A stretch of 64,000 nucleotides of DNA from Alphaproteobacteria bacterium (GTDB lineage Bacteria; Pseudomonadota; Alphaproteobacteria; CAAGCB01; CAG-977), in the NCBI GenBank assembly GCA_017539865.1, contig JAFYCE010000101.1, positions 7,089-71,088 on the forward strand, read 5' to 3'. Positions 1 through 22,394 of this stretch are shown here, piece by piece; within the stretch, counting starts at the first letter, position 1, and each line of letters starts with the position of its first letter. The position numbers and the translations under genes were made by a program. The notes beneath the pieces are model-generated. The model worked only from the letters and a program-made list of their open reading frames with translations. It made no database searches and was not told where the DNA came from.

Positions 1-87
1 CACTTTTTCCAAATTTATCAAAGACGGTTGTTTTTCTTTTTCATTCCAAATGAACTTTAATTTTCCGTTCTGATAGCCTTTATACAT
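1..87 (-). CDS. Hypothetical protein (N-terminal 29 codons only; gene runs off the window start). Probably phage/island-associated.
   Basis: The ATG at 87 overlaps the stop of the tail-fibre gene (TAATG). It reads MYKGYQNGKLKFIWNEKEKQPSLINLEKV to the window edge. Confidence 0.3.
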   Translation of the reverse strand, partial: MYKGYQNGKLKFIWNEKEKQPSLINLEKV

Positions 88-1748
88 TATTCTTCTCCTT
101 CTGCGTAGATAAATGAAACAACTGGTGTAGTTTGTCCGTAAGCGATTTGGACGCTTTCTCCCGCTTTTGCCGGAATATAAGCGGATATAGTTGAGCCTAA
201 CGTATAAGAATGATCGGAATCTTTGATAAAAGTTGAGAGGTTCTCAATATCCACAAAGGCAAAACTATTCACCTCAACTGTTCCGGAAATTGTAAAAAAT
301 CCGTTTGCTGGGGCGATGTAGGTTGCGAAAGAAGCACCTGTTACTACAATAAGCCTTTTGCTTCCGGGCATTCCCATTTTGGCCAGTTCAGAGGTTGGAT
401 ATGTATTGATTGTATCTATACTTCTGCTCGGCATCGAAACAATCGATCCTCCGCTGACAACGACTATTCCTAAGTCTGTGAAACCAATATCGGAAAAAAC
501 ATTAAAAGTGCTTTTCGTATTCAGCATCCCGTTCGCATCAACAACAAGATGAAGCGTATTATTTACTGCGACTGTCTGAACACCACTTGTTTCCCATATC
601 GTATTAGAACAAGTACCGTCCGAACTGATTGATTGTAAGGCCTGTCCTTTGATATGAGGCAAAACAAATACGGTTGAAGCAATACAACCGATTCCGTTGA
701 ATACTCGATCTATCTGAACATAAGACGAGCCCAAATAGGCAACTTGCGCGCATGGCAAATATACTTCGCCGACCGTTCCCAAATTATCGTTAAATCTTGT
801 TATCTTGGTGTTCGGATTATACCAAAGATACGGAGCCGCCGGTTCTGTTGTTTGGGAAAAGACATGTGTTAAATCCATTTCCCACAAATGACCCGTCTTT
901 GAAACAACCAGCAGTCCTTTTCCTTGAAATCCACCGTTTAAAGAAAGGTCTTGCTGAAGCCTCATATTGTTACCGTTCCCATCATAAACGACACTTCCTG
1001 CAGTTAGTTTTACAACTCCTGCCGTCAGAGAAATTTTTATGTTTTGTGGAACAGACAAAACACGGCTTGCTGTGTACGTTTTGTTAAATTCCGTCGTATC
1101 CATAATTTCCGCCCATCTTTTTGCGGAATGGATTCCATTGACAGACACGATTTCCTCATCCGTTCCTTCTGCCCAGATTCGGGCTTTATTGGCACTGCTG
1201 GAGGCTTGTGTTGCTTGATTTATCGCATCAGTAATAGCAGATATGTGAGTAGCCGCGGTATGAATAGAAGAAATATCGTCCGAAACTGTCGTCAACGATG
1301 AGATGTTTTGAGCCGCAACAACTATCTCGTCTTTGATACGGTAAAGTTTTTCAATTTTATCTACTAATACAGATGGATCAGAAGCTGAAAATAAGTCCAC
1401 CGTTACCGCCCGTTCCGCCTGCTCTTTCAGCTGTTGAATCTGCATTGTCAGCTTGTCGAAATTGCGTTCAAGCGTTTCAGCCGGCAAAACCTCGTTTTCC
1501 CGATAGTCCGTTTCCTGCGTCAACGGCACTTCGCGCATAATCACGATTTGCGCATCATCCGCCGGAGCCGTCGCAAAAACCATATTCCCGCCCGAAACCG
1601 TCCAATCCGTCCTTTCCGTCTGCACGTTGTTTAAAAGTTGTCTGACCTTTAAATGCTCCCTTTCCAAAAAAGGAAACGGGATTGCAAATGTTGTCGCAAC
1701 CCCGTTCCCGATATAAGCCACTTTGTTTGTTGTTGTACTTACCGTCAT
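87..1748 (-). CDS. Phage tail fibre-like protein.
   Basis: A 553-aa ORF with a GAGG RBS before the ATG. The N-terminal KVAYIGNGVATTFAIPFPF motif is typical of phage tail-fibre/tail-collar N-termini. There is a coiled-coil stretch followed by a Gly/Ser/Thr-rich beta-type C-terminal half. Confidence 0.5.
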   Translation of the reverse strand: MTVSTTTNKVAYIGNGVATTFAIPFPFLEREHLKVRQLLNNVQTERTDWTVSGGNMVFATAPADDAQIVIMREVPLTQETDYRENEVLPAETLERNFDKLTMQIQQLKEQAERAVTVDLFSASDPSVLVDKIEKLYRIKDEIVVAAQNISSLTTVSDDISSIHTAATHISAITDAINQATQASSSANKARIWAEGTDEEIVSVNGIHSAKRWAEIMDTTEFNKTYTASRVLSVPQNIKISLTAGVVKLTAGSVVYDGNGNNMRLQQDLSLNGGFQGKGLLVVSKTGHLWEMDLTHVFSQTTEPAAPYLWYNPNTKITRFNDNLGTVGEVYLPCAQVAYLGSSYVQIDRVFNGIGCIASTVFVLPHIKGQALQSISSDGTCSNTIWETSGVQTVAVNNTLHLVVDANGMLNTKSTFNVFSDIGFTDLGIVVVSGGSIVSMPSRSIDTINTYPTSELAKMGMPGSKRLIVVTGASFATYIAPANGFFTISGTVEVNSFAFVDIENLSTFIKDSDHSYTLGSTISAYIPAKAGESVQIAYGQTTPVVSFIYAEGEE

Positions 1749-1855
1749 TTTTACCTCAAATAAAAAAAGCAGGGATAATTCCCTGCCGGTTTACAATCAA
1801 CTCGATCCAAGATACAACAAATTGTGATTATTTTTATTAAAAAGTCAAGCTGTTT

Positions 1856-2575
1856 TTACCTTTCCCGTTCCGCCGATCTTCTCTGTTCGTGAAGCTCACG
1901 GAGCTGCCGGATCGTTTTGTGCTTACGCGGAATAACCATCTTTGTCAGAGAAAAATCTCTGTCCTGAAACCGTGTCGCCTGCATCTCCCAACCGAACTCT
2001 TTGGCGACTTCGACCTGGTGTTGCCGGAGCATTTGAAGTTGCGCTTTTTTGAACCGCAACCGCTCCCGACCGTTCGACATTTTCAACAGAATGTGTCCGT
2101 GTGTTGCGGATTGATGCGTATGAACGGCGTATAAATACCGATACCCTCTTTCCGCAAAAGGCTCCATATACCGTTCTATAAACCGATAGGCTTCGTCCTC
2201 GCTGATGTTCATTCTTTTCGGGAAAGATACGATCAGGTGAACCATCGCGTTCCCGTTTTTCCGCCGCTGTTCCAGATCATAAGCGTCTATCGCTTCGTTC
2301 AGCTTTTCGGTCGGAATCAGACGCCGTTCGTCGTCATAAACACGGGCGTCTTTCTCCATTCCTTCCGAGCCGTGCGCGATATAATGAGCGATGTTTTTCG
2401 CTCCCGTCGGTGATTTCACATAGAACGCGACTTTAACCATCGCTTCCGGCGGCGGCACTTTGAAAGAAAGCGTCGCCCTCTGTTTTGCGGGCGGCGAATA
2501 GTGAACCGGGAAGCGTTGACGTTCGACGTATATCCCCCGGATATGTTCGTCCAGCCAGTTCCGTTTATTCGCCAT
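1856..2575 (-). CDS. mobA: MOBQ-type relaxase domain protein (MobA-like, about 240 aa, relaxase domain only).
   Basis: Start re-set to MANKRNW (ATG at 2575). It has an N-terminal catalytic Tyr motif NIAHYIAHGSEG (compare RSF1010 ADYIQREG) and a three-His motif AVHTHQSATHGHILL (compare AIHAGGGENPHCHLMI). It overlaps the stop of the upstream mobC-like gene by 11 nt. Confidence 0.6.
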   Translation of the reverse strand: MANKRNWLDEHIRGIYVERQRFPVHYSPPAKQRATLSFKVPPPEAMVKVAFYVKSPTGAKNIAHYIAHGSEGMEKDARVYDDERRLIPTEKLNEAIDAYDLEQRRKNGNAMVHLIVSFPKRMNISEDEAYRFIERYMEPFAERGYRYLYAVHTHQSATHGHILLKMSNGRERLRFKKAQLQMLRQHQVEVAKEFGWEMQATRFQDRDFSLTKMVIPRKHKTIRQLRELHEQRRSAERER

Positions 2576-2936
2576 AATACGCCGCCAATAGTTTGTTGAT
2601 TTTATCCCGGAGCGCGTGAAGTTCACGGCAAACCTGCTGTAAATCCCGCAAAGTTTTTTCTTCAAGAGATTGTTTTTTTATCAGCGTCGTGTTCAAAGCG
2701 CGGACTGCTTGATTGGTGTTGACGCCGACTTTTCGGGCTTGTTCTTCAAGCTTTGTCAGCAACAAAATTTCGTCATAATGCGGGATTTTCATCTGATGAA
2801 CCCCCGCAAGAATGAACAACCGGATCAGGCGGGACGGACATTGTTTTTCGGCAACGAGCGCGTCCCAGATTTCTTTTTCTATTCTGAACGATTTACGCAA
2901 CATTGGCATTTTTAGCCTCGCAATAAAGTCGTTCAA
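2565..2936 (-). CDS. mobC: MobC-like relaxosome accessory protein.
   Basis: A small ORF directly upstream of the relaxase and translationally coupled to it. The motif KVGVNTNQAVRALN resembles the MobC signature (IGNNLNQIARxLN). The true start may be the internal MPMLRK. Confidence 0.5.
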   Translation of the reverse strand: MNDFIARLKMPMLRKSFRIEKEIWDALVAEKQCPSRLIRLFILAGVHQMKIPHYDEILLLTKLEEQARKVGVNTNQAVRALNTTLIKKQSLEEKTLRDLQQVCRELHALRDKINKLLAAYYGE

Positions 2937-3154
2937 GCGTGTGTGACGAAAGAAATTTTACAGCTGTTTGAGGGCGATTTCAAGGGCGGGTTGGCGGGGT
3001 GTTTTTCGCTCTTTTCGTCGGACGAAAAGGCTTTCCTGCAAAAAAGTAGCCCTCAAAAGAATCAATCCCTTGCGAATCAGCCTCAAACAGCCCTGAAACA
3101 GCCTAAAAACTGACCGCGCCCGCCCAACCGCCCTTTGTTGACGGCTTATTCAAA

Positions 3155-3188
3155 CGGTGTCGCCGCGTGTGCGGCGACCGATTTTTTT
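3155..3188 (+). terminator. Rho-independent terminator-like hairpin, orientated for the + strand.
   Basis: GTCGCCGC-gtgt-GCGGCGAC (8-bp stem) followed by CGATTTTTTT. It lies in the noncoding gap between mobC and the upstream minus-strand genes. Confidence 0.4.
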
Positions 3189-3202
3189 CGGGGAATACGG
3201 CT

Positions 3203-3475
3203 CTATTCGGAGCCGTATTCTTTCTCTATATCGGATATTTTCGGGAGAATCTCTTTTTGAAAATAAGCATCAAAGGCTTGGTTCAAGAAATGTTTTTCCA
3301 TTGAATAGAAAAACTCTGCCAGTTGCTCGTTTCTTGCAAGTTCCTGCATCGTTTCCCGATATTTCTCCGCCACTTCCCCGCCGTGAATGAAACAAAATAA
3401 AGCGGTGGAAAACTCAACATCTTTGCGTTCTTCAAAGTCGGGTAAAAACTCCTCGATTAAATCCCAATACAACAT
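3203..3475 (-). CDS. Hypothetical protein (90 aa), coupled to the upstream gene.
   Basis: The ORF starts 3 nt after the stop of the 3479..3892 gene. No recognisable motif. Confidence 0.4.
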   Translation of the reverse strand: MLYWDLIEEFLPDFEERKDVEFSTALFCFIHGGEVAEKYRETMQELARNEQLAEFFYSMEKHFLNQAFDAYFQKEILPKISDIEKEYGSE

Positions 3476-3478
3476 TGT

Positions 3479-3892
3479 TCAATCCTCCCTGATGACCTGA
3501 CCGACAGGGCAAGGCGTAAAAAATAAATCCAATTCCGCAAGCTCCAAAAGTTCGTCAACGGAGATGTATCCGGCCTCGAAACCATATCCGAAACTCGCCC
3601 AACCGAACGCCTGAATTTGCTTTTCGGCGGTGTCTTTTTCGACGATGTAGCCGTCATAGGAACCGACAAAATAGTGCAGTTGAGCCAAAGCGTTTTTGCC
3701 TTGTCCGTCCGTTTCATAGACTTGCGGCATCGTTTTGATTCGCTCGGCAAGGTTCAGGATAATGTCCGCGAACGCTCCGGCTTCCTCGGAATGATACAGA
3801 TTGTCGATAAGGGTTTGAGCCTGCCGAACCGGCATAAACGGTTTAAGGGTCGTTTTCATTTCGTTTAAGGCTTGGTCGAATTTATCGGTCAT
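3479..3892 (-). CDS. Conserved MGE leading-region protein of unknown function (possibly DUF2958-like).
   Basis: 137 aa with a GGAG RBS. Motifs LHYFVGSYDGYIVEKD and AFGWASFGYGFEAGYISVDEL recall a small family found beside ardC on plasmids/ICEs. It shares promoter, leader and the first 6 codons (MTDKFD) with ardC at 6058. Confidence 0.4.
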   Translation of the reverse strand: MTDKFDQALNEMKTTLKPFMPVRQAQTLIDNLYHSEEAGAFADIILNLAERIKTMPQVYETDGQGKNALAQLHYFVGSYDGYIVEKDTAEKQIQAFGWASFGYGFEAGYISVDELLELAELDLFFTPCPVGQVIRED

Positions 3893-4098
3893 TGTCTTGC
3901 TCCTTCTCTGTAAAAAGCACTTGGTTAAAGGGTTTTAGGCATCGCGCCTGAAACCCTTTCGAGGTGCTTCGTCGGAGAGAAGAAAGCGATTGTCATATTC
4001 CAAGAAAAACGGAGGGGTATCGCCCGTCTTGCAGCATTGCGAAAGTCGGGGAAACCGTTTTTCTTCCGTCAGGCGGAGGGAATTGACAATCAAGAAAA
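3875..4098. repeat. Copy A of a ~200-230 bp direct repeat (promoter/leader cassette); about 90% identical to copy B.
   Basis: Aligned by eye to 6041..6271. It contains the start codon plus 6 codons and RBS of the minus-strand gene, a 14-bp-stem hairpin at 3927..3959, and on the + strand a TTGACA box at 4086. Confidence 0.8.
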
Positions 4099-4143
4099 TT
4101 TATTGTCCACTTACTTAAGAAAAATACTGTTAAGGAAAAATCT

Positions 4144-4896
4144 ATGACAAAAATTCATTTTGTAAAAAAGCAAAGCGACATCATAAGAAATATAGAAAAA
4201 CTGTATGAGTATCTTGCTTCTTCCGATAAAACTTTATCTGATTTTGCTTTTAATCTTATGAAGCGAGGGCGAGCCTATGTCGCTTATTATGACGATAATT
4301 GTGATAAATGGCTTTTAGCTCCTAGTAGATTTGTCGGATACAAGAACAATGATTACAAAAAACATAAAATGAATGATGAAAAAGATGGAACAAGAACCTC
4401 TAAAAAAATAGACGAGATTTTAAAATGCGGATACAAAACTAACAAAAAATTAGAATCTCTTTTAAAAACGATTTTTGAAGTTCCTTCTTATAAAGAAGCT
4501 AAACTCCATTTTTGGATTTTAGGAGATGACAGAAAGCTTGATAAACAAACAATGGAAGAACAAGCTCAAAAATATATAGAACAAAAGAAATTAAAAGAGC
4601 ATATATTTTATGAAGGTCGTATTTCTGGAAAAATACGTAAAAAAATAATTGAACAATTAGGAACAACATGCGAAGCCTGTGGCAGAAAAATGGAAGAAAT
4701 ATATGGTGAAATAGGCAGAGGATATATAGAATTACATCATTTAAAACCTTTCTGTAATTTGGATATTGGAAAAGAAAGGGTAGTAACTCCTTCTGATTTT
4801 GCTGTTTTATGCCCGAACTGTCATAAAATGATTCATAAAACAAACGAAACAAGTGATATTAAAAAATTCAAAAAAAGAATAAAAAAATCCGTTTAA
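4144..4896 (+). CDS. McrA-like HNH endonuclease (putative modification-dependent or other restriction/defence nuclease).
   Basis: 250 aa with an AAGGA RBS. The C-terminal CEACG...IELHHLKP...LCPNCHKMIH matches the McrA-type HNH/zinc-finger pattern (CxxC..HH..N..CPNCH..H). The N-terminal 170 aa are unrecognised. The gene sits in a sharply AT-rich island (about 4100-4900). Confidence 0.6.
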   Translation: MTKIHFVKKQSDIIRNIEKLYEYLASSDKTLSDFAFNLMKRGRAYVAYYDDNCDKWLLAPSRFVGYKNNDYKKHKMNDEKDGTRTSKKIDEILKCGYKTNKKLESLLKTIFEVPSYKEAKLHFWILGDDRKLDKQTMEEQAQKYIEQKKLKEHIFYEGRISGKIRKKIIEQLGTTCEACGRKMEEIYGEIGRGYIELHHLKPFCNLDIGKERVVTPSDFAVLCPNCHKMIHKTNETSDIKKFKKRIKKSV

Positions 4897-4994
4897 ACGT
4901 AAAAGAAATTCTTTTTTCGGGCGGATTGCGAAGCAATCGGGCATGGCATCGGGCGAAAAACGGGGCAGATACAGAATCGTATCCGCCTGAATTT

Positions 4995-5159
4995 TTAGAA
5001 GTAATATGTCGTTTTTTCCAAGTCGTCGCGCTTATATCCCTGCGCGATCAGTTCGTAAAATTTGGACAGTTGTGCGGCTTTGCTGTGAAAGTCGAAATGT
5101 TCTTTTTCGTATCCGTCCGCGCCGTAAATCGTCAGTCTGAAAAAAGCAATCTTCATTGT
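4995..5159 (-). CDS. Small hypothetical protein (54 aa) downstream of ardC.
   Basis: Strong RBS AGGAGGAAGAACA-ATG. Reads MKIAFFRLTIYGADGYEKEHFDFHSKAAQLSKFYELIAQGYKRDDLEKTTYYF. Confidence 0.4.
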   Translation of the reverse strand, partial: TMKIAFFRLTIYGADGYEKEHFDFHSKAAQLSKFYELIAQGYKRDDLEKTTYYF

Positions 5160-5185
5160 TCTTCCTCCTCTTTTGAGGGAAGCGG

Positions 5186-6058
5186 TCAAGCCGCTTCCCG
5201 TCCGATTTCCTGGAATGTCAGCAGATAGTCAAAAGCCTTTTGCGCTTCGGAGCAGGCTTTGAAAATCGCCTTTTTGTCGTTCTTCAAAACCTTGAGCCAA
5301 GATTTCAAGTAAGCAAGGTTGTTTTTGCTGAATTGATAGTCATAACCCAAATATCCGGCGACAAATCCCGCGCCGATGTCGGCGATCAGTTCCTCAAAGG
5401 CGTAGGATTCATTTCCGAAACGGCCTTTCATATCCCGGTTTAAGCGGTTCTTGTGTCCGGTCGCGTGGATTGTTTCGTGCGCCAAAGTCGAAACGAAGCC
5501 GGTTTCCGTTTTGAAGTCTTTTCTTTCCGGCATTAAGACAACATTGTTTTTCGGGTCGTAGCCTGCCAAAGTCGCGCCGTAAAAATAAGAGATGTCCGTG
5601 TTTTCAAAAAACGCCATCACGTCCTTTTCAACGCTAAATTCGGCTTTTTCGATGTCTTCGCCGAATCCCTCGACTTGCGAACCGTTAAACACGGAATAAG
5701 CGCGGGCGACAAAAGCCTGGTTTTCGACTTCTTCGATGTCGCCGGTTTCGGTGTTTTCGACTTCGCATTTATAGGAAAGAGGTTTCCAGAAAACGATGGT
5801 CGTCGCCTTTGAGTCTTTCTTGACCTGATAGCCTTTATCCTGCCATTGGCGATAAGTTCCCCAAACGGACGAGGAAAAACCGTTGAACAAAGCGGCAAAG
5901 TTCAAAATCAGAATGTTGATGCCGCGATAAGCCTTTTTTGTCGTGATGTTCCGGGCAAAAGAGGAAATAAACGGCTTTTCCCATTCGCCGGAAAAGTTTT
6001 CCAAATGTTCGATGATGGTGTTTGAAACGGTTTCGATGATGTCGAATTTATCAGTCAT
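5186..6058 (-). CDS. ardC: Anti-restriction protein ArdC (ssDNA-binding N-terminal domain plus C-terminal HExxH metalloprotease-like domain).
   Basis: Start re-set to MTDKFD (ATG at 6058, RBS GGAG). Motifs YRGINILIL and HETIHATGH are characteristic of ArdC/DUF1738. The ORF-track start at 6262 lies inside the repeat/leader. Confidence 0.7.
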   Translation of the reverse strand: MTDKFDIIETVSNTIIEHLENFSGEWEKPFISSFARNITTKKAYRGINILILNFAALFNGFSSSVWGTYRQWQDKGYQVKKDSKATTIVFWKPLSYKCEVENTETGDIEEVENQAFVARAYSVFNGSQVEGFGEDIEKAEFSVEKDVMAFFENTDISYFYGATLAGYDPKNNVVLMPERKDFKTETGFVSTLAHETIHATGHKNRLNRDMKGRFGNESYAFEELIADIGAGFVAGYLGYDYQFSKNNLAYLKSWLKVLKNDKKAIFKACSEAQKAFDYLLTFQEIGREAA

Positions 6059-6271
6059 TTTGAAAGCTCCTTCTCTGTAAAAAGCACTTGTTAAAGGGTT
6101 TTTGGCATCGCGCCTGAAACCCTTTCGAGGTGCTTCGTCGGAGAGAAGAAAGCGATTGTCATATTCCAAGAAAAACGGAGGGGTATCACCCATCTTGCAA
6201 CGACACCGGAGCGAAAGTCGGGGAAACCGTTTTTCTTCCGTTAGGCGGCAGGGAATTGACAATCAAGAAAA
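6041..6271. repeat. Copy B of the promoter/leader cassette repeat.
   Basis: See copy A. Hairpin at 6093..6125 and a TTGACA at 6256. On the minus strand it is upstream of ardC; on the + strand it is upstream of the HU gene. Confidence 0.8.
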
Positions 6272-6338
6272 GGCTTTGCTTAAACCTTGAAAAAAGGATA
6301 ATCTGTGCTTCTGTTTATATTTGAAATGGAGTTGCATT

Positions 6339-6611
6339 ATGAACAAAGCAGAATTAGTGGCTGAAATCGCGAAGAACACCGGTTTGACGAAAGTTGATTC
6401 CGAACGGGCGACGGAAGCCTTGTTGAATACGGTTGCCGCGACCTTGAAGAAAGGCGATGAAGTTCGTTTGGTCGGCTTTGGCACGTTCAGCGTGACGAAA
6501 CGTCCAGCTTCGACCGGTCGCAATCCGCGCACGGGTGCGGAAATCAAGATTCCGGCTTCCAAACAGCCGAAATTCAAAGCCGGTAAAGGTCTGAAAGACG
6601 CTTTGAACTAA
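6339..6611 (+). CDS. hupB: DNA-binding protein HU.
   Basis: MNKAELVAEIA...GFGTFSVTKRPASTGRNPRTGAEIKIPA is the classic HU/IHF-family fold sequence. It is followed by a strong terminator. Confidence 0.9.
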   Translation: MNKAELVAEIAKNTGLTKVDSERATEALLNTVAATLKKGDEVRLVGFGTFSVTKRPASTGRNPRTGAEIKIPASKQPKFKAGKGLKDALN

Positions 6612-6631
6612 TAACCGGTTCAAAAACAGAT

Positions 6632-6666
6632 AAAGGCGTGTCCGTTCGGACGCGCCTTTTCTTTAT
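6632..6666 (+). terminator. Rho-independent terminator of the HU gene.
   Basis: GGCGTGTCCG-ttc-GGACGCGCC followed by TTTTCTTT. Confidence 0.7.
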
Positions 6667-6849
6667 ACCTGAAACGAGATTTCCGAGTTTTCCATTAAAT
6701 TTCCCAATAAGAAAAACAAGAAAAAGATAGTGTTTCCAAAGATTCGTTTGTTTTTGATTCCCTATTTTCCCAAATTCCGTTTTTCCGGGAGAACGAAAGA
6801 TGTGATTCGCATCAAATTTTTCTATTATTTTTTTGAGAAAAACAAAAAC

Positions 6850-6871
6850 GTGATAGAAAAGTGATAGAAAA
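6850..6871. repeat. Tandem 11-mer (GTGATAGAAAA x2) in the AT-rich gap between the HU gene and the tRNA.
   Basis: Two exact adjacent copies. Confidence 0.6.
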
Positions 6872-6907
6872 GTTCTGTTTTTCGCCGTTTCATCAAAACG
6901 TCCGGAA

Positions 6908-6940
6908 AAGAAAAAGCCCTTGAAAATCAAGGGCTTCTTA
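6908..6940 (-). terminator. Terminator hairpin immediately 3' of tRNA-Arg.
   Basis: On the minus strand: AAGCCCTTGA-tttt-CAAGGGCTT followed by TTTCTTTT. Confidence 0.6.
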
Positions 6941-6941
6941 A

Positions 6942-7018
6942 TGGTGATCTCGCCGCGATTCGAACGCGGGACCCACAGCTTAGAAGGCTGTTGCTCTATC
7001 CAGCTGAGCTACGAGACC
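6942..7018 (-). tRNA. argU: tRNA-Arg (anticodon UCU), argU-like.
   Basis: A 77-nt cloverleaf folded by hand: acceptor GGTCTCG/CGAGATC, D arm GCTC-AGCTGGATA-GAGC, anticodon arm ACAGC-CTTCTAA-GCTGT, T arm CCGCG-TTCGAAT-CGCGG, discriminator A plus CCA. The anticodon arm closely matches E. coli argU. Confidence 0.85.
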
Positions 7019-7222
7019 ACTGCGCCATTTTTTAAACCGAACGGCGTTTGATATCAAGTCTTTTTTCAAATAAAGGGAAAAATATCCGGCGAAAAAAGGT
7101 TTTACGGTTTGTCGGAAAAGAAATTTTTAACAAATGATATCTATCATTTAGAACAGTGGAAAAGTTTCTTTAAGCAACAGTGGCCGGCTTTTGTTGCTTT
7201 TATATTTTTTAAGGTGTTCGCC

Positions 7223-10200
7223 ATGAGACAGACAAAAACGACAATTAAAGAATTAACCGCACGGTATAGAACGGTTTTGTTGAAGTGCGCATTGATAAAC
7301 GCCGCGTTTTTTATAACGGTCGGGACGGCAAAGGCGGAGGAAGAGATTCAACCGACAATCAATGTGTTGAAGGAATCTGCAACAGATTATTTGAATAATG
7401 AACATAAAAATTACGTGTTGGCGACGGAAAAAGGCGAACATACGGCGCAAATCGTTATCAACGGCACAACATACTATTTCACGCCGGATGAAAGCTCGCC
7501 GGAATTGAACGATGCGGTGGTAAATCTGGCGAATATAGGAGCCACCGCGCTTATTGCGGGAACGGCAAGCGATTATACTTTCTTCGTTCCGGCACCGGCA
7601 GGATATTTTAAATACGATCCCGCAAAACTGCCGTCTTCCGTTTACAGTTATTCTGATTCCGGTTCAGGGATTACTGCGGTTACTTTTGACAGCTCGCAGT
7701 ATCAGGTCATAAGTCAAACAAGCTTCGGAAGCGGGGGGGAAACCTATTCGTTTACTATAAATGAAGTACCGATAAATGCGCATTACGCATCTCCGTCTTT
7801 GATCAGACAGGTCATTGAAAGCAATGCTGATAATGTGTCAGGGGATTTTTATAATATATCGGGCGACACAATGGGCGGCGCGATTTCTTTTACCAGCACG
7901 GCGGGCGCTTATACCATAGGTTCCGTTAACAGCGATTTTATAGCCAACTATACAACGGACGGTCAAGGCGGCGCGATTTATAATTTTACGAACACGATAG
8001 GTACTATTTCGGGCGATTTTATAGATAACTATGCCGTTTCGACGGCAGATGACGCTTTGACCGCTTACGGTGGGGCCATTGTCAATCAGGGCGGTGCTGA
8101 AGGAACGGGAAAAATCGGTCTTATCAGCGGTAATTTTGTCAGAAACCATGTTGATTTATCCGCTTCGGCCGCAACAGAAAATACAAAAGTTTACGGCGGC
8201 GCGATTTTTAACTGGGATGTTGCCGAAATAGGGACTATTTCGGCGAATTTCATTGCCAACTATGCCAAAGCAAAACCCGAAAAAGAAAATCAAAATGTCG
8301 CCGGCGGTGCGATAGCGAACTTTTCCGAATCCTCTTCAGGGGCGCGTATCGGCAACATTACAGGTGATTTTATCAAAAACAACATTCAAAACGGCAACAG
8401 CAAAGCATACGGCGGCGCGATTTACAATCAATCTGTTATCGGCAATATCACCGGCGATTTTATCGCGAACACGATTACCCGAGCCGGCGGAGAAGGTTAT
8501 GGCGGCGCAATTTATAACGATGGGACTTTAGGAACGGTTACGGGCGATTTTGTCGAAAACTATGTAAAGAACAGCGCAGCCGGCAAAGCATACGGCGGCG
8601 CGGTTTATAATAACGGGACGATAGGTGCGATCACCGGCAGTTTCATAGGAAACTATGCTCAGGTAGTTGCCGGAGAGGGAACGGATGCGCACGGCGGCGC
8701 GATTTATACGAATTCTTCATTAAACTTTGTTGCCGATAACACATCAATGGTGTTTTCCGGAAACTATATCTCAAAAGACGATGGCGGAACTAAGGCTTAT
8801 GAGGCGATTTATGCGTCTTCCGCTTCCGCCGCGCTGACTTTTTCCATAAAAAATGAGGGCGAAGCGACCTTGTACGATTATATCAACGGGGTTGACGGTT
8901 ATTCGGTCAATTTCACGGGCGATGAAACCGGCACGCTCTATTTATTCAATGACATTAAAAATGCGGCTGTCACGTTGGATAAGGTCAAACTCAATCTTCA
9001 AAACAACGAAATCAAAGAATATGACGCTTTCAAAAGTTTGACATTGAACAGCGATATTCCTCTTTCGTTGGATATAAATTTGACTGGTGCTGGATCGGCA
9101 GACAAACTTTCAGCGATGAATGTTGATGCGAATGACCATTTTTTGATTATCGATTCAATCAAATTTTCAGGAGCGATGGAGGGGGCGTCGACCACTATAC
9201 CGGTGGTGGGAGACACTCTGAAAGATTATGTCAAACTTTCGGCGGATGATTTGACGGTTACAGGGCTGGGGACAGGGAATAAATATCTGATTGCGTATGT
9301 AAAAGATGCCGAAGGTGTTTTGAATGTTAAAACGGGGGCCGAAGCCACATTGGCTTCAGCGGTGGCTTCTACGGCAAGCGAGCGTGCTTATGTTTTGGGA
9401 GATAGTGAAGATATTGAGCAGAATCTCGGGGCGATGGGAGGGACGGCTCTTCATATTTTCAAAACAGGCGGCGGCATCGTCACGATAAACGGGCAAACTC
9501 ATGCGGGAATAACCGTTGGCGGCGGTCAAAGTTTGAGTATAAAGGATGTGCTATTCGCTAATTTCAGTACGGTCATCACCAATCAGGGCACATTGTCTCT
9601 GACAAATGTTCAAATCAATGGTGAAAATGCAATCGGAATCAATAATGGCGGAACATTAAAGCTGAATGGAGAAGTGATAATTGATACTTCAATCATTGAT
9701 ACGGCCGGTACGGGAAAAACGGAAATTGCGGCTGACAGCAACAACAACGTTTCTGCTGCTTTGACGCAAAATACGCTGACCGTTGCAACGGGGGCTTCTT
9801 TTACTGCGGGGACGGTGACCGTTACCAACGGCGGATCCATTGCCGCCAATGCGTCCATCTCGGGAGATATGGTTGTAAAGGGCGGTACTTTTACGGTTAG
9901 TGAAAACGGCAGTATAACAGGGACGATCGGGGTCGATCCGGCGGCGACAATGACGGTTGACAAAGGAGCTTTGGCTTCGGTTGAAAACAAAGGGACGATG
10001 CTTGTCAAAAACGCCAGTACGATAGGCGGAAATCTGGTCAATTCCGGAACAATAGGGCTTGATTCCAGCAGTGTGACCGGAAACATAACCAACTCGGGAA
10101 CGATGGGGATTAAAGACAGTGCCTCCGCTAACGTAACCAATACGGGATCATTTACGGTTGCCGGAAATTTTACGGGCAATTTGGAAAACCGTTCTCAATT

Positions 10201-11842
10201 TTCAATAAACGGAAATGTTAATTTTACCGGTTCGATTCATAATGACGCTTCCGCAAATATGAATGTCGCAAATACGCTGACCGTTTCCGGCGGTGTGACA
10301 AACGACGGCATAATAAAGGGCGGCGGAACGATCGCCGGAAACGTGACCAGCAGCGCTCAAGGAACCATCGGTACGTCGATGACAATTGGCGGAACATTGA
10401 CTTCTGCAGGGAACATCCTTTTGGAATCAAACACAACGACCCCCTATGCAATGACGGTCGATACGTTAAACATTACGGGCGGAAAACTGGTTTTATCCTC
10501 CGGAAACAAAACGTATCAGAAAGGCGATGTCGTTACGGTCATCAACTTTGATACGCTGGCGGGATTCAGCGGTTTTGAACCGTGGACGTATCTGACCGAT
10601 TTTGTTGTGGCGATGCCGCATCAGGAAGCGGATAAGATAACCGCGACGATAGATTTCATTCCAATGTCGCAGGAAGCGTCCACGTCTTCTTTCACACCCG
10701 ATGAACACAAGATTATCCAAGCCATTGATGACATTTATATGAATCAGGGCAAAGCGGATTTCGGCAGGTTTTATTTCTATACGCCGCAGGAATTGAAAGA
10801 ACAGGTCAATTTGTTGCGTTCTAAAGCCATGCCCGTTCTGAACGAACAGCTGCCTTTGACAAAAGTCATGTCATCGCAGGTTTATGCGCATCTGTTCACC
10901 AATTCAATGGTCAAAGACGCGGGAACGCTTTACCATCCGCATGTTCCCATGCAGCGGTTCCAAGGGGGCTATTATCGCGGGCGTTCCGGCGGTAGTACGC
11001 TGAAAAATCAGAAAGTGTGGGGGCAAATTCTGGGCGGCGTCACCAAAGAGGACGGAGACGCTTCTGTCGGTCGGAATGATTCAACGACCAGATCCGTCGG
11101 GGTCATGTTCGGATACGACCATGAAACTTCGGAAAAATTCATGTTCGGTTTTACGGCGGGAATGGCTTCCGCGAAATTAAGTCAGGATAATAATAAAGTC
11201 GATCTTCGCGATTATAGGGCGGGTTTCTATACCGCATCGCGATTCGGGCGCATGACGTTGAATACTCTGACGATGGGCGGCTTCCAACAGTATAATACCG
11301 AAAAGAATATGACGCTGGCCGGAATGGAAACCAAAAACAAAGCCGATTTTAACGGATATTCGGCGGAATTTAACGTCAATCTGGGATACGATTTCATGAA
11401 GGTACCGTATCGGGATTATTCTTTCCATATCCGTTCCTATCTGTCGGCGGATGTCAGTTATCTTCATCAGGACGCCTATAAGGAAAAAGGCAGCGTTATA
11501 TCGGCGATCGGTCTGAAAGCGATAGATGATACGTCGGTCAGTGTTTCTCCGGGGATAACGTTCGGTTATACTTTTTCGGAATCGGTTTTGACGGCGGATA
11601 TCGGATATCAACGTCTTCTCAGCGGCGGTTCGTTGCACAGTTCGGCTTATTTCGCGGCGGATGAAACTAAAACGACGTTTGCGTCGTTTGAAACAGAAGC
11701 GGATAAGGATTTCCTGAATGCCGGATTGGGCTTTAAAACAAAATTGACGCGCGATTGCCAGCTGAATTTGTGGGCGGGAACCAGAATATCCGACAAAACA
11801 AGCTCGTTGAATTTTGCAGCGACGTTTTCCTATGCGTTTTAA
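7223..11842 (+). CDS. Pmp-like autotransporter adhesin (type Va secretion): beta-helical passenger plus C-terminal beta-barrel.
   Basis: Start re-set to MRQTKTT (extended signal peptide ending ...TAKA). Nine GGA[IV]...FxxN repeats. The C-terminal 280 aa have alternating aromatic/hydrophobic beta strands ending ...ATFSYAF (terminal Phe). Confidence 0.85.
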   Translation: MRQTKTTIKELTARYRTVLLKCALINAAFFITVGTAKAEEEIQPTINVLKESATDYLNNEHKNYVLATEKGEHTAQIVINGTTYYFTPDESSPELNDAVVNLANIGATALIAGTASDYTFFVPAPAGYFKYDPAKLPSSVYSYSDSGSGITAVTFDSSQYQVISQTSFGSGGETYSFTINEVPINAHYASPSLIRQVIESNADNVSGDFYNISGDTMGGAISFTSTAGAYTIGSVNSDFIANYTTDGQGGAIYNFTNTIGTISGDFIDNYAVSTADDALTAYGGAIVNQGGAEGTGKIGLISGNFVRNHVDLSASAATENTKVYGGAIFNWDVAEIGTISANFIANYAKAKPEKENQNVAGGAIANFSESSSGARIGNITGDFIKNNIQNGNSKAYGGAIYNQSVIGNITGDFIANTITRAGGEGYGGAIYNDGTLGTVTGDFVENYVKNSAAGKAYGGAVYNNGTIGAITGSFIGNYAQVVAGEGTDAHGGAIYTNSSLNFVADNTSMVFSGNYISKDDGGTKAYEAIYASSASAALTFSIKNEGEATLYDYINGVDGYSVNFTGDETGTLYLFNDIKNAAVTLDKVKLNLQNNEIKEYDAFKSLTLNSDIPLSLDINLTGAGSADKLSAMNVDANDHFLIIDSIKFSGAMEGASTTIPVVGDTLKDYVKLSADDLTVTGLGTGNKYLIAYVKDAEGVLNVKTGAEATLASAVASTASERAYVLGDSEDIEQNLGAMGGTALHIFKTGGGIVTINGQTHAGITVGGGQSLSIKDVLFANFSTVITNQGTLSLTNVQINGENAIGINNGGTLKLNGEVIIDTSIIDTAGTGKTEIAADSNNNVSAALTQNTLTVATGASFTAGTVTVTNGGSIAANASISGDMVVKGGTFTVSENGSITGTIGVDPAATMTVDKGALASVENKGTMLVKNASTIGGNLVNSGTIGLDSSSVTGNITNSGTMGIKDSASANVTNTGSFTVAGNFTGNLENRSQFSINGNVNFTGSIHNDASANMNVANTLTVSGGVTNDGIIKGGGTIAGNVTSSAQGTIGTSMTIGGTLTSAGNILLESNTTTPYAMTVDTLNITGGKLVLSSGNKTYQKGDVVTVINFDTLAGFSGFEPWTYLTDFVVAMPHQEADKITATIDFIPMSQEASTSSFTPDEHKIIQAIDDIYMNQGKADFGRFYFYTPQELKEQVNLLRSKAMPVLNEQLPLTKVMSSQVYAHLFTNSMVKDAGTLYHPHVPMQRFQGGYYRGRSGGSTLKNQKVWGQILGGVTKEDGDASVGRNDSTTRSVGVMFGYDHETSEKFMFGFTAGMASAKLSQDNNKVDLRDYRAGFYTASRFGRMTLNTLTMGGFQQYNTEKNMTLAGMETKNKADFNGYSAEFNVNLGYDFMKVPYRDYSFHIRSYLSADVSYLHQDAYKEKGSVISAIGLKAIDDTSVSVSPGITFGYTFSESVLTADIGYQRLLSGGSLHSSAYFAADETKTTFASFETEADKDFLNAGLGFKTKLTRDCQLNLWAGTRISDKTSSLNFAATFSYAF
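7840..8720 (+). repeat. Array of nine GGAI / FxxN (Pmp-type) passenger repeats inside the autotransporter.
   Basis: GGAISF..SDFIANY; GGAIYNF..GDFIDNY; GGAIVN..GNFVRNH; GGAIFN..ANFIANY; GGAIANF..GDFIKNN; GGAIYNQ..GDFIANT; GGAIYND..GDFVENY; GGAVYNN..GSFIGNY; GGAIYTN..SGNY. Confidence 0.8.
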
Positions 11843-19757: not shown

Positions 19758-22394
19758 ATGATGACTACCGGCGAAATTCGGCGCATTTTTTTGGACTATT
19801 TCCGCAAAAACGACCACGAGATCGTGCCGTCCAGTTCTTTGGTGCCGCACAACGACCCGACTTTGATGTTTACCAATTCCGGCATGGTGCAATTTAAAAA
19901 CATCTTTACGGGCATGGAAAAAAGGCCGTACGTCCGCGCCGCTTCCGACCAGAAGTGCGTGCGCGCCGGCGGAAAGCATAACGATTTGGACAATGTCGGC
20001 TATACCGTGCGCCACCACACGTTTTTTGAAATGCTCGGGAACTGGAGTTTCGGCGACTATTTCAAAGAACAGGCGATTTATTACGCGTGGAACGTCGTGA
20101 CAAAGGAATTCGGCCTGCCGAAGGAAAAGCTGACGGCAACGGTTTACCATACCGATGACGAAGCATTCAATTTATGGAAAAAAATCGCCGGTCTGCCTGA
20201 TGAACGCATCATCCGCATTCCGACGAAGGACAATTTCTGGTCGATGGGCGATACGGGGCCGTGCGGGCCTTGTTCCGAAATCTTTTACGACCATGGCGAA
20301 CATATTCAGGGCGGGCCTCCGGGATCTCCCGACGAGGACGGCGACCGGTTCGTCGAAATCTGGAATCTGGTGTTCATGCAGAACGAACAGCTGGCGGACG
20401 GCCGTTTGATTGATCTGCCTCATCCCTGTATCGACACCGGCATGGGGCTGGAACGTATGGCGGCGGTCATGCTCGGCACGAACGACAACTATGAAACAGA
20501 CGTGCTGAAGGGGCTGATCAACGCGGCCGCGGGAACGGCGGGAGTCGAACCCTACGGCGAATTCAAAACATCGTTGAGAATCATTGCCGACCATTTGCGT
20601 TCCTCCTGCTTCCTGATCGCGGACGGCGTTCTGCCGTCGAACGAAGGGCGCGGCTATGTTCTGCGCCGCATTATGCGCCGCGCGATGCGTCACGCGCACA
20701 TGATGGGATGTCAGGAACCTCTTATGTGGCGGCTGGTGCCGGCTTTGGTGCGGTATATGGGCGACGTGTTCCCCGAACTGATCCGCGCCGAAGCTTTGAT
20801 GACCGAAACCTTGCGTCTGGAGGAAACGCGCTTTAAGGAAACGTTGGGACGCGGTCTGAAGCTGCTGGATGCGGAAACGGGCAAGCTCGGCGAAAACGGT
20901 GTTCTGTCCGGCGATATCGCGTTCAGACTGTATGACACTTACGGTTTTCCGTTGGATTTGACGCAGGACGTTTTGCGCGGCAAGCATATGACAGTTGATA
21001 CAAAAGGCTTTGAGGCCGCGATGGAACGGCAGAAAGCCGAAGCGCGCAAGGCGTGGGCCGGTTCCGGTGAAGCGGCGACCGACGCCGTCTGGTTTGAAGT
21101 CAAGGAAAAAGTCCACGGTACGGAATTCTTGGGATATGACATGACGCAGGCCGAAGGGCAGATCGTTTCTTTGCTGGTTGACGGCAAAATCGTCGATTCC
21201 ATCGCCGAAGGACAAAAAGCGGCCGTTATCACGAATCAGACGCCGTTTTACGGTGAATCCGGCGGTCAGGTCGGCGATACGGGAACGATCGCGATCGCCG
21301 ATTCCGTTTTGTTCGACGTCGAAGACACGCAGAAGAAAGTCGGGGACCTGTTCATTCATCTGGGGACTTTGAAGAAAGGTGCTTTGAAGGTCGGACAGAA
21401 CGTTTTGATGACCGTTGACGAAGAACGTCGGGCGGCGACGGCGCGTCATCACTCGGTTACGCACTTGCTGCAGGCGGCTTTGCGCAAGATTTTGGGCGAA
21501 CACGTTACGCAGAAGGGCTCTTCGGTGCGCCCCGACGGGATGCGTTTCGACTTCTCCCAGCCGCGGCAAATTACGTTTGAGGAATTGCGGCAGGTGGAAA
21601 ATGAAGTCAACCGCAATATTTTGAAAAATTTGGAAGTCACGACGCGCCTGATGTCGCCTGAAACGGCGGTCAAGGACGGCGCGATGGCTCTGTTCGGCGA
21701 AAAATACGGCGACGAAGTCCGCGTTGTGTCGATGGGCGCCGGAGAAGACCGCGTTTCCGTCGAACTGTGCGGCGGGACGCACGTCAAACGCACGGGCGAC
21801 ATCGGTTCCTTCCGCATCGTTTCCGAAAGCGCTTTGGCGGCGGGCGTCCGCCGTATCGAGGCTCTGACCGGTCTGGCGGCGTTGGAATATGCTCAAAAAC
21901 GCGATGATTTGTTGGCGCAGACGGCTGAAATGTTGAAAGCCTCTATCGCGGACATTCCGGCGCGTGTTCAGAGCGTGATTGACGAACGCAAAAAGTTGGA
22001 ACGCGAATTGTCCGATACGCGTAAAAAATTGGCGGTCGGCGGCGCTTCCGGCGCGCAGGCGACAAAACAGATCAACGGCATTTCCTTTATCGGCCGCGAG
22101 CTGAAAGATGTTCCCGCCAAGGAATTAAAAGGCATGGCGGACGAAATGAAAAAGCAGATCGGTTCGGGCGTTGTCGCTTTGACGTGCGTTGCGGACGGAA
22201 AAGTGTCTGTCGTTGTTGGTGTAACGAACGATCTTACATCAAAGATCAATGCGGTCGATTTGGTGCGCATCGGCGCGGCGGCGGCCGGCGGAAAAGGCGG
22301 CGGCGGCCGTCCCGATATGGCGCAGGCCGGCGGTTCCGACGCGTCTAAAACGGCGCAAGTGTTGGCCGAAATCGAAAAAGCGCTGGGAGCTTAG
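19758..22394 (+). CDS. alaS: Alanine--tRNA ligase.
   Basis: 878 aa. N-terminal class II motifs ([25 protein letters not shown]) and C-terminal HSVTHLL..CGGTHV editing/DHHA1 regions. Confidence 0.95.

Follow-up and report, generated by a model that had tools for sequence, protein, structure and literature searches.

What kind of element lies beside the tRNA-Arg(UCU) gene of an uncultured alphaproteobacterium, and where does it end? The question is raised by a 64,000-nucleotide (nt) stretch of an Alphaproteobacteria bacterium genome (assembly GCA_017539865.1, contig JAFYCE010000101.1), referred to here as the window. On the 3′ side of its tRNA gene stand genes for an HU protein, an ArdC anti-restriction protein, an HNH nuclease, a conserved leading-region protein (orf137), MobC, a relaxase and a phage tail fibre. 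All of these open reading frames (ORFs) are present at the places given in a first-pass annotation, which read them as a single eroded mosaic element with its far end beyond position 1. We find that the inserted DNA is a shorter, intact segment of 5,045 bp (window 1858-6902), running from about 40 nt past the tRNA to the stop codon of the relaxase gene. Most probably this insert is a non-autonomous mobilisable module, dependent on a helper for transfer, that belongs to a family of tRNA-adjacent conjugative and mobilisable elements in uncultured human-gut Alphaproteobacteria.

The boundaries come from two loci (L001, L002 and so on denote numbered loci or contigs from relatives or metagenomes). 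L001 is a 12.4-kb metagenome contig that encodes the exact tail-fibre protein, is identical to the window at 7,767 of 7,767 shared bases, and adds 4.7 kb to the left of window position 1. L035, from a related genome, is an empty site, in which an autotransporter gene, tRNA-Arg(TCT), a terminator, a promoter (CTTGACA...AAAAATAATCACAAT), the tail-fibre gene, a Phage_tail_APC chaperone gene and a glycan-synthesis cluster follow one another. BLAST of L001 against L035 returns two blocks of homology, with a gap of 22 nt in L035 and of 5,045 nt in L001, and the inserted DNA is therefore window 1858-6902 only. The flanks of the insert thus stand 22 nt apart in L035 with no mob genes between them, a presence/absence polymorphism. 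The tRNA-Arg(UCU) gene (6942-7018, minus strand, TCT anticodon; Rfam tRNA 65.9 bits) is intact, presents its 3′ end to the insert, and is the sole tRNA found in the window by ARAGORN and Rfam. Its terminator hairpin (AAGCCCTTG-ATTTT-CAAGGGCTT; 6914-6936, minus strand) aligns with those of L028, L040, L042 and L035. The far, right-hand junction is the relaxase stop codon itself (1856-1858), not a site beyond position 1. Because L035 has the tRNA, 22 nt, and the same fibre promoter and gene without mob genes, the fibre and the gene behind it lie outside the element and are not its cargo, as had first been proposed.

The leftward extension also bears on the machinery of movement. Left of position 1, L001 carries the remainder of a small gene (orf129), a terminator-like hairpin, a family-2 (GT2) glycosyltransferase gene, a malate/lactate dehydrogenase (Mdh) gene and a further 767-aa ORF. 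No recombinase domain was found in any ORF of window 1-7020 or of these 4.7 kb, which extends the earlier remark that no integrase is seen in the window. An integrase and a repeat of the tRNA 3′ end had been expected further left; the search of the 4.7 kb found neither, and no such repeat, with up to 3 mismatches, occurs in L001 or the window. The same repeat search finds an 82-nt attR beside a tyrosine integrase in L033, a distantly related integrative and mobilisable element (IME) at tRNA-Val. One 14-nt match (L001 887-900 with 7969-7982, inside orf129) was taken as chance, because the empty site puts the fibre and chaperone genes outside the insert. Genes for a type IV secretion system (T4SS) or a coupling protein (T4CP) are likewise missing between the tRNA and the tail fibre. 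With neither an integrase nor a tRNA-derived attR, and with neither coupling protein nor T4SS, the element presumably cannot excise or transfer by itself.

At the tRNA-proximal side the insert opens with an AT-rich end region (6612-6902, delimited by alignment of relatives, repeats and composition), which contains tandem TCTATCAC boxes (6850-6868) and GGAAA-rich repeats, both putative binding sites for a recombinase or an accessory protein. An HU-family DNA-binding protein follows (6339-6611, plus strand; PF00216 at 6.7e-35). It had been suspected to be island-borne, and this is confirmed: HU occupies the same element end in L040, L041, L042 and L052 (86-93% amino-acid identity), is truncated in L051, and is absent from the empty site. 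The ArdC-type anti-restriction protein (5186-6058, minus strand; 290 aa) carries both domains of its family (PF08401 ArdcN at 1.2e-31; PF18818 zincin at 2.1e-37; phrog_7245 at 5e-71) and an HETIH sequence that matches the HExxH metallopeptidase motif. Past it lie the conserved small ORF orf53 (4995-5156, minus strand; gene call on L001) and, from a terminator scan, a terminator-like hairpin at 4964-4987.

An HNH nuclease gene resembling type IV restriction enzymes comes next (4144-4896, plus strand), then orf137 (3479-3892, minus strand), a leading-region protein kept in every family member seen, whose only match is phrog_5203 at 1e-18. The small protein orf90 (3203-3475, minus strand) is present across relatives and has a divergent allele in the window. 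A MobC-like (MobC_2, PF19514) relaxosome accessory protein (2565-2909, minus strand) is preceded by a sigma-70-like promoter (TTGAAA-17-TAAAAT; 2955-2983, minus strand), identified by consensus match only, and the last gene is the relaxase (1856-2575, minus strand; 239 aa), with a MobA/VirD2-type nuclease domain (PF03432 at 7.5e-12) and an HxH motif. The relaxase matched only the general MobA/VirD2 domain, so that the earlier MOBQ label is provisional, and a PDB sequence search yielded no solved relative of it; Pfam at permissive E-values gave nothing for orf137, orf90, orf53 or orf129; and viral contig scans with the relaxase and orf137 returned no relatives. Megablast of window 1-7100 against plasmid and phage collections matched the tRNA and nothing else.

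Base composition sets the HNH gene apart. The window averages 49% GC; the AT-rich blocks noted in the first-pass annotation are real, falling to 28-35% at 4000-5000 and to 38% at 6600-7000. Most core genes have a third-position GC (GC3) of 0.58-0.68, and the backbone genes come close to this with 0.46-0.59. For the HNH gene the values are 29% GC and a GC3 of 0.20; it is antisense to the backbone and sits in what proves to be the variable defence-cargo slot of the family; the block is a foreign, AT-rich acquisition. The gene matches the PADLOC type IV methyl-directed restriction endonuclease at 1.2e-7, and its Pfam HNH match (E 6e-4) falls below the cut-off; its earlier description as McrA-like is therefore only approximate.

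Nor is the insert decayed. A truncated relaxase of about 240 aa had been taken as a sign of erosion, but the family has repeated examples of relaxases of 240-247 aa, at 44-96% identity, beside forms of about 345 aa, and a relaxase fragment in L028 shares the ...ERER* C-terminus of the window relaxase; the short relaxase is therefore a family variant and no truncation. The junction between relaxase stop and fibre promoter is the same in the window, L051 and L052, and these three genomes allow the selection on the insert to be estimated. Synonymous divergence (dS) among them is 0.1-0.4, except for orf90, which reaches 1.3-1.8 against the window's divergent allele. The ratio of nonsynonymous to synonymous divergence (dN/dS) is 0.02-0.06 for ArdC, 0.07-0.09 for the relaxase, 0.04-0.10 for MobC, 0.10-0.15 for orf137, 0.08-0.12 for orf53, 0.14-0.17 for orf90 and 0.115 for HU, next to 0.11 for the dehydrogenase. 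The genes of the insert are intact and under purifying selection, with dN/dS of 0.02-0.17 across three genomes, and the description of an eroded element has to be given up.

The relatives of the insert form a recognisable family. The relaxase has 81 detectable relatives; all of the named ones come from metagenome-assembled genomes (MAGs) of Alphaproteobacteria, many of them on contigs 100-400 kb long. A recurring backbone emerges from their gene contexts and from a scan of metagenomes with orf137; it runs from the end region through HU, a repeated cassette with ArdC and orf53, a slot, a second cassette with orf137 and orf90, and an inverted repeat to MobC and the relaxase. This backbone adjoins the 3′ side of tRNA-Arg(TCT) in L028, of tRNA-Thr(TGT) in L040 and L042, and of tRNA-Arg(ACG) in L041, L051 and L052. 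The tRNA-proximal AT-rich end is homologous in L001, L028 and L040-42, where it has been aligned across three tRNA genes, and includes tandem TCTA(A/T)CA boxes. The earlier proposal of a mobile-element origin, abutting the 3′ side of tRNA-Arg(UCU), is borne out. Some relatives carry a YolD gene and a gene for a UmuC-like polymerase after HU, both of which the window copy lacks.

Members differ in what follows the relaxase. L028 and L043 carry a coupling protein (T4CP) and VirB11/B10/B9/B8-type genes, as do integrative and conjugative elements (ICEs); L040 and L041 have a C39-ABC exporter with HlyD, and L038 and L039 a restriction-modification-like cluster. The window copy, with nothing after its relaxase, is the shortest version seen. 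The insert corresponds to the entry end of this ICE/IME family, whose hosts are uncultured gut Alphaproteobacteria. The slot that separates orf53 from the second cassette is filled by a different gene in almost every element, antisense in all but those with DUF3800: an HNH gene in the window and one 77% identical in L045, GmrSD_N with a 255-aa protein in L002/L051, Shedu in L028, DUF3800 in L040-42, an OLD-family nuclease in L038, and a 222-aa protein in L052.

Several further features of these relatives were recorded. L028, a T4SS-bearing element, has a short relaxase fragment of the window type (11091-11459; 78% identical over residues 145-267) behind its own 342-aa relaxase, and in L028 and L029, two independent assemblies, the VirB8 gene is split into ORFs of 75 and 143 aa (20274-20951), where intact homologues have 225 aa; the relaxase fragment and the split VirB8 are signs of decay in this relative. 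In L045, orf137 is split by an insertion of about 8.8 kb (parts at 1149-1304 and 10122-10274), with the HNH homologue in the neighbouring slot. A second, more distant IME family of the same relaxase clade (P0059, P0068; 40% identical to the window's) is found at tRNA-Val(GAC) in L030, L031 and L033. Its defence cargo includes Eco57I/ResIII, reverse transcriptases and an NB-ARC/AAA_16 protein, and in L033 the tyrosine integrase lies distally, with the 82-nt attR.

Exchange between copies of the element is evident. In L051 and L052 the left flank with tRNA-Arg(ACG) is orthologous to that of L041, whereas from the first cassette rightwards the sequence is 96% identical to the window; the window's orf90 allele, in turn, is highly divergent from theirs. 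Most simply read, copies of the element residing at separate tRNA loci have undergone homologous recombination, the breaks falling close to the repeated cassette. Because L035 shows the same adjacency of tRNA-Arg(TCT) and fibre, the arrangement in the window suggests that it preserves the original insertion context.

Between orf90 and mobC lies a block (3108-3208) that resembles an origin of transfer (oriT). In an alignment of 7 elements, about 95 nt are conserved even though the relaxases are only 37-94% identical; the block contains an invariant GC-rich inverted repeat (3159-3178, GTCGCCGCGTGTGCGGCGAC in the window; GTCGCCGCAC(A/G)CGCGGCGAC across the alignment), and the flanks of the repeat are conserved too. 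Rfam returned nothing for this region at gathering or E-value thresholds. The block is likely the oriT of the family, and its nic site and nicked strand are provisional assignments.

The second conserved non-coding feature is a duplicated cassette. The first-pass annotation had noticed a repeated promoter cassette, and as a repeat of about 230 nt it is real. Copy 1 (6038-6271, minus strand; found by repeat search, folding and alignment) reaches across the Shine-Dalgarno sequence into ArdC, whose first 6 codons it takes in, and copy 2 (3872-4098, minus strand; repeat search and alignment) precedes orf137 and includes its first six codons. The two are 90.5% identical over 232 nt by BLAST. Thirteen non-identical copies (from L001, L002, L028, L038, L040-43 and L045) have a mean column identity of 89%, above that of the proteins they precede. 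Their consensus fold is an imperfect hairpin of about 110 nt followed by a second of about 90 nt, in whose closing stem CTTCTCT is paired with the Shine-Dalgarno region, AGAGAAGGAG. For single copies the folding z-score is -5.4, whichever strand is folded. Rfam, at the same two thresholds, again returned nothing. In L028, L040 and L041, both cassette copies of an element share indels that differ between elements, and the window's two copies differ by one such indel; the sharing of indels within elements suggests gene conversion.

The genes behind the cassettes point towards the oriT-like site, as do the mob genes. In the leading regions of plasmids, anti-defence genes are transcribed from the incoming transferred strand (T-strand) by way of Frpo-type hairpin promoters (Samuel et al. 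2024, PMC11541004), and the orientation of the insert's genes matches this leading-region rule, if the T-strand is the one we infer. A role of the cassette as a single-stranded DNA (ssDNA) promoter is a serious possibility, though not the one we would favour. On the template strand the 3′ arm of the hairpin reads TTGACAAT, with TTGACA and a -10-like GACAAT, neither of which has a partner hexamer 16-18 nt away. Scanning and manual reading found no double-strand sigma-70 promoter in the sense orientation of the cassette. The TTGACA at its outer end, on the opposite strand, could serve as the -35 of divergent promoters for HU and the slot gene. Variable cells that read as G-U pairs (about 11) and as C-A pairs (about 9) are similar in number and so do not separate a sense RNA from an antisense ssDNA.

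From these parts a mode of transfer can be proposed. A T4SS supplied in trans by a co-resident relative of the L028 or L043 type would allow MobC and the relaxase to nick the oriT-like site, after which orf90, orf137, ArdC and HU would enter the recipient first; with these genes all taken to point towards oriT, the incoming strand could serve as their template, and the duplicated two-hairpin cassette might drive or control their early expression. Because the module is fixed in the chromosome, its transfer would be Hfr-like (of the high-frequency-recombination kind), or would be rescued by homologous recombination with resident copies.

Several observations weigh against this picture. The nicked strand, and hence the set of genes that leads, is taken from the usual geometry in which the relaxase enters last. 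No helper T4SS or integrase is visible within the 64-kb window. The family integrase and attR were also sought through the VirB8 gene, which led to loci (L048-L050) with T4SS, LPD3, Fic and resolvase genes, where 10 kb of context showed no integrase. As for the cassette, compensatory changes occur at only 2-3 base pairs, all in the L028 copies, and neither arm holds a convincing -35/-10 pair at 16-18 nt spacing by promoter scan or manual inspection. It may equally well be an mRNA 5′ leader, a role that a hairpin masking the Shine-Dalgarno sequence fits just as closely. Finally, the right junction is common to three genomes that have diverged to a dS of about 0.3; this end has therefore long been unmoved, and the module may be domesticated rather than mobile.

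The last point leads to one of two alternatives that survive best, both of which we regard as improbable beside a helper-dependent module. Under domestication, the insert would no longer be transferred: HU would act as a nucleoid protein, the HNH gene or whatever else fills the slot would defend the host, and ArdC or the relaxase would have taken on a host function. The junction shared by three genomes with low dN/dS, the near-native GC3 and the lack of a nearby integrase or T4SS all agree with this. Against this, MobC, the relaxase and the invariant inverted repeat of the oriT-like block are likewise under purifying selection, and the only role known for any of them is in transfer; recombination, too, is evident in the replaced orf90 allele, in the left flank swapped between tRNA-Arg(UCU) and tRNA-Arg(ACG), and in the turnover of slot cargo.

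The other makes the insert a whole IME in miniature, with neither end lost, to which a related resident ICE gives integrase and T4SS in trans. Its starting point is an 8-nt direct repeat, AAAAACAG in the minus-strand reading, found by junction comparison exactly at both junctions: the left copy at 6875-6882, and the right copy at 1850-1857, where it overlaps the last two bases of the relaxase stop. The empty site L035 carries a single AAAAACGG. The repeat may be an att core, a target-site duplication, a deletion microhomology or chance. If the first or second, the tandem boxes of the conserved end region could be arm-type sites, and relatives at three different tRNA loci, together with purifying selection on all genes, would fit an element that still moves. 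Yet eight A-rich nucleotides can match by chance or through microhomology at a deletion, the corresponding motifs at the L051 junctions match over only 6-7 nt, and recent excision and re-integration sit badly with a right junction that is the same in three diverged genomes. Other members, moreover, carry from 4 to more than 10 kb after the relaxase, which puts the usual right end further out. We doubt this alternative about as much as domestication and return to the helper-dependent module.

How does such a module compare with described elements? It resembles IMEs and decayed ICEs or IMEs (Guedon et al. 2017, PMC5704250) in being chromosomal, on the 3′ side of a tRNA gene, with its own relaxase, accessory protein and oriT-like site and no mating pore, and it shares with IMEs a defence cargo and relatives that include full-T4SS elements. 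Judged by the features that define an ICE, it has a relaxase, an oriT-like site and an empty-site polymorphism, and lacks T4SS, coupling protein, integrase and att sites. It also falls outside the definition of an IME (PMC5704250), having no integrase or excision module and no recognisable attR, and departs from typical decayed elements in that its genes are all intact and under purifying selection in three genomes. Cis-mobilisable elements (CIMEs) are ICE or IME derivatives without recombination and transfer genes that keep attL and attR (PMC5704250). Like them, the insert is a non-autonomous derivative of a conjugative family that would rely on a related helper; unlike them, it keeps relaxosome genes and an oriT-like site, with attR absent or reduced to the 8-nt repeat. 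Its attL-side end region is conserved.

The leading side of the insert recalls plasmid leading regions with Frpo/ssi promoters (PMC11541004; Masai & Arai 1997, cited there), in that its ArdC and other small genes are separated from the relaxase by the oriT-like site and all face that site, and in that a long imperfect hairpin (about 110 nt, z = -5.4) precedes both ArdC and orf137. It differs in being an integrated alphaproteobacterial element and not an enterobacterial plasmid, in having no canonical -35/-10 in the stem, and in its extra hairpin masking the Shine-Dalgarno sequence. The window ArdC is like those of the IncW plasmid pSa and its relatives in its two domains at high significance, its HExxH motif and its leading-region position, but has 290 aa and lies on a chromosomal island, and its anti-restriction role is a prediction.

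The tail-fibre gene outside the insert (87-1748, minus strand; 553 aa) requires its own account. Its match to the T7 tail-fibre N-terminal domain (E 4.6e-5) narrowly misses the Pfam cut-off; that to phrog_1640 'tail protein' is at 3e-36. It is the only ORF here with a match to phage structural families. Its stop is overlapped by 4 nt by the start of orf129 (1-90, minus strand), which runs off the window; the L001 extension completes it to 129 aa, with no family match, at the position of a tail-fibre assembly chaperone. Upstream (1749-1848, minus strand) stand the resident fibre promoter, TTGACT-16-CACAAT (1821-1848), and a leader hairpin with a T-run (1768-1787), both outside the element. Six fibre loci share this promoter and a hairpin with a run of 7 or 8 Ts right before the Shine-Dalgarno sequence; the hairpin is a predicted leader terminator that would need read-through for the fibre to be expressed. 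No further copies of the promoter motif occur elsewhere in the window.

Homologues of the fibre are numerous in alphaproteobacterial MAGs. Identity to the window fibre is 52-84% over the N-terminal 130-220 residues; the C-termini are variable, and lengths range from 305 to 704 aa; a viral contig scan with the fibre gave only distant N-terminal matches (25-39% identity). Eight genomes have readable context (window/L001, at window 87-1848 and L001 7681-8135, L002/L051, L052, L003, L035, L036, L037 and L053), and in every one the fibre gene is followed by a small ORF and then by glycan-synthesis genes, the small ORF being a Phage_tail_APC chaperone in five. No other phage structural genes (capsid, portal, terminase, tail) are annotated within 10 kb of the fibre in these eight genomes.

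The DNA around the fibre differs in history from the mob genes. When the fibre-glycan segment (window 87-1748 and L001 7681-9201) is compared with L002/L051, DNA identity is 99.3% for the fibre gene, 99.2% for orf129 and 97.3% for the glycosyltransferase gene, against 86% for the dehydrogenase and 90-93% for the mob genes; the segment therefore has a separate, more recent history, which points to a recent exchange of fibre, orf129 and glycosyltransferase as a unit. L052 has a different fibre allele at the same place, and its glycosyltransferase is only 66% identical. The fibre and the gene downstream belong to a resident module, unrelated to the insert, beside which the insertion site happens to lie.

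It is here that the original proposal is decided. As a single decayed mosaic, a phage-plasmid or IME, the element would run from the tRNA through the mob and fibre genes to an integrase and tRNA repeat beyond position 1. Phage-like and plasmid-like genes do adjoin each other and the tRNA, and the GC3 of the fibre gene, 0.40, is lower than that of core genes. Nevertheless, 4.7 kb to the left contain neither integrase nor tRNA repeat, the tRNA of L035 lies directly upstream of the fibre promoter with no mob genes, pairs of fibre and chaperone genes without mob genes occur in L003, L035, L036, L037 and L053, and the identities to L002 (99.3% for the fibre, 90-93% for the mob genes) record different histories. 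A single mosaic is very unlikely. With no att site and no integrase, with relatives carrying the same genes and with GC near native, that specific model fails, and the broader view of a conjugative or mobilisable relic holds. Least likely of all is a phage satellite or an island linked to a gene transfer agent (GTA) that retargets particles through the adjacent fibre and uses the relaxase module for replication or packaging: in three genomes the fibre gene does come 107 nt after the relaxase gene and on the same strand, but capsid, terminase, primase-replicase and integrase genes are all missing, the fibre's own conserved promoter and leader also occur in genomes without a mob module, and the mob backbone occurs without a fibre in L028 and L038-43.

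What the resident fibre does is a separate matter. Like the fibres and head spikes of RcGTA, the GTA of Rhodobacter capsulatus, which are encoded outside its main cluster (Hynes et al. 2016, PMC5026251; PMC10218006), the window fibre is a stand-alone chromosomal gene; the likeness, confined to the fibre module, extends to a conserved particle-binding N-terminus, a variable C-terminus and a link to surface-polysaccharide genes. RcGTA is siphovirus-like, whereas the N-terminus of the window fibre is of the T7 (podovirus) type, and no GTA or tailocin structural cluster was seen in the regions read, which were the 64 kb of the window and 10-kb flanks in relatives. By analogy, we conjecture a link of the window fibre to a particle. 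The pairs of fibre and chaperone genes could be GTA or tailocin fibres encoded away from the particle, forming the exchangeable receptor-binding module of an undescribed domesticated particle; alternatively, they could be decoy fibres activated in trans, switched on by a phage late regulator. Were the cassette, as a separate matter, a Frpo-type promoter in an integrated element of Alphaproteobacteria, chromosomal DNA next to the insert would be transferred in Hfr-like fashion by the oriT and relaxase that it retains. We hold these readings to be possible but rather unlikely.

Three observations concern the surroundings of fibre genes in relatives. In L036, a small serine recombinase of the resolvase/invertase type (178 aa; 9367-9903) is encoded directly upstream of the fibre gene; it recalls the Gin and Cin invertases, which switch the C-termini of phage tail fibres. 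A full-length gene for GmrSD (type IV restriction) lies between the glycosyltransferase and dehydrogenase genes of L002 (10943-12631; the same as L051 13233-14921), and the genome of the window does not have it. L003 has an HsdR gene, of type I restriction-modification, next to its fibre pair. The fibre neighbourhood behaves as a defence hot spot.

On the other side of the tRNA, the right flank of the window is core chromosome, with an autotransporter, FliP, TruA, Fmt, Def, AlaS, RadA, a resistance-nodulation-division (RND) pump and PBP1A. When species-representative genomes were scanned with the dehydrogenase, the window fell among MAGs of uncultured gut Alphaproteobacteria. The autotransporter (7109-11842; 1,577 aa) has periodic repeats of about 90 nt that code for GGAI...F..N-type motifs, as in polymorphic membrane proteins, and L028 and L035 have a subtilase-type autotransporter at the equivalent position.

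As a tRNA-adjacent island, the insert is an ordinary remnant. It documents, at the same time, an ICE/IME family with a fixed backbone in uncultured human-gut Alphaproteobacteria, for which no named description was found and for which the plasmid and phage collections yielded nothing similar. The fibre module and the cassette are the parts most worth following. A stand-alone fibre module with a late-gene-like leader, beside glycan loci, may be a sign that this clade has a phage-derived particle or defence yet to be discovered. In the element family, a single slot swaps at least six cargoes, four of which match known defence families (HNH/type IV-like, GmrSD-like, Shedu and OLD), and this swappable slot is a practical place to look for new defence systems. 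A module of oriT-like site, relaxase and leading region, with neither integrase nor mating pore, can stay under strong purifying selection in several genomes, which bears on how much chromosomal DNA is mobilisable in trans.

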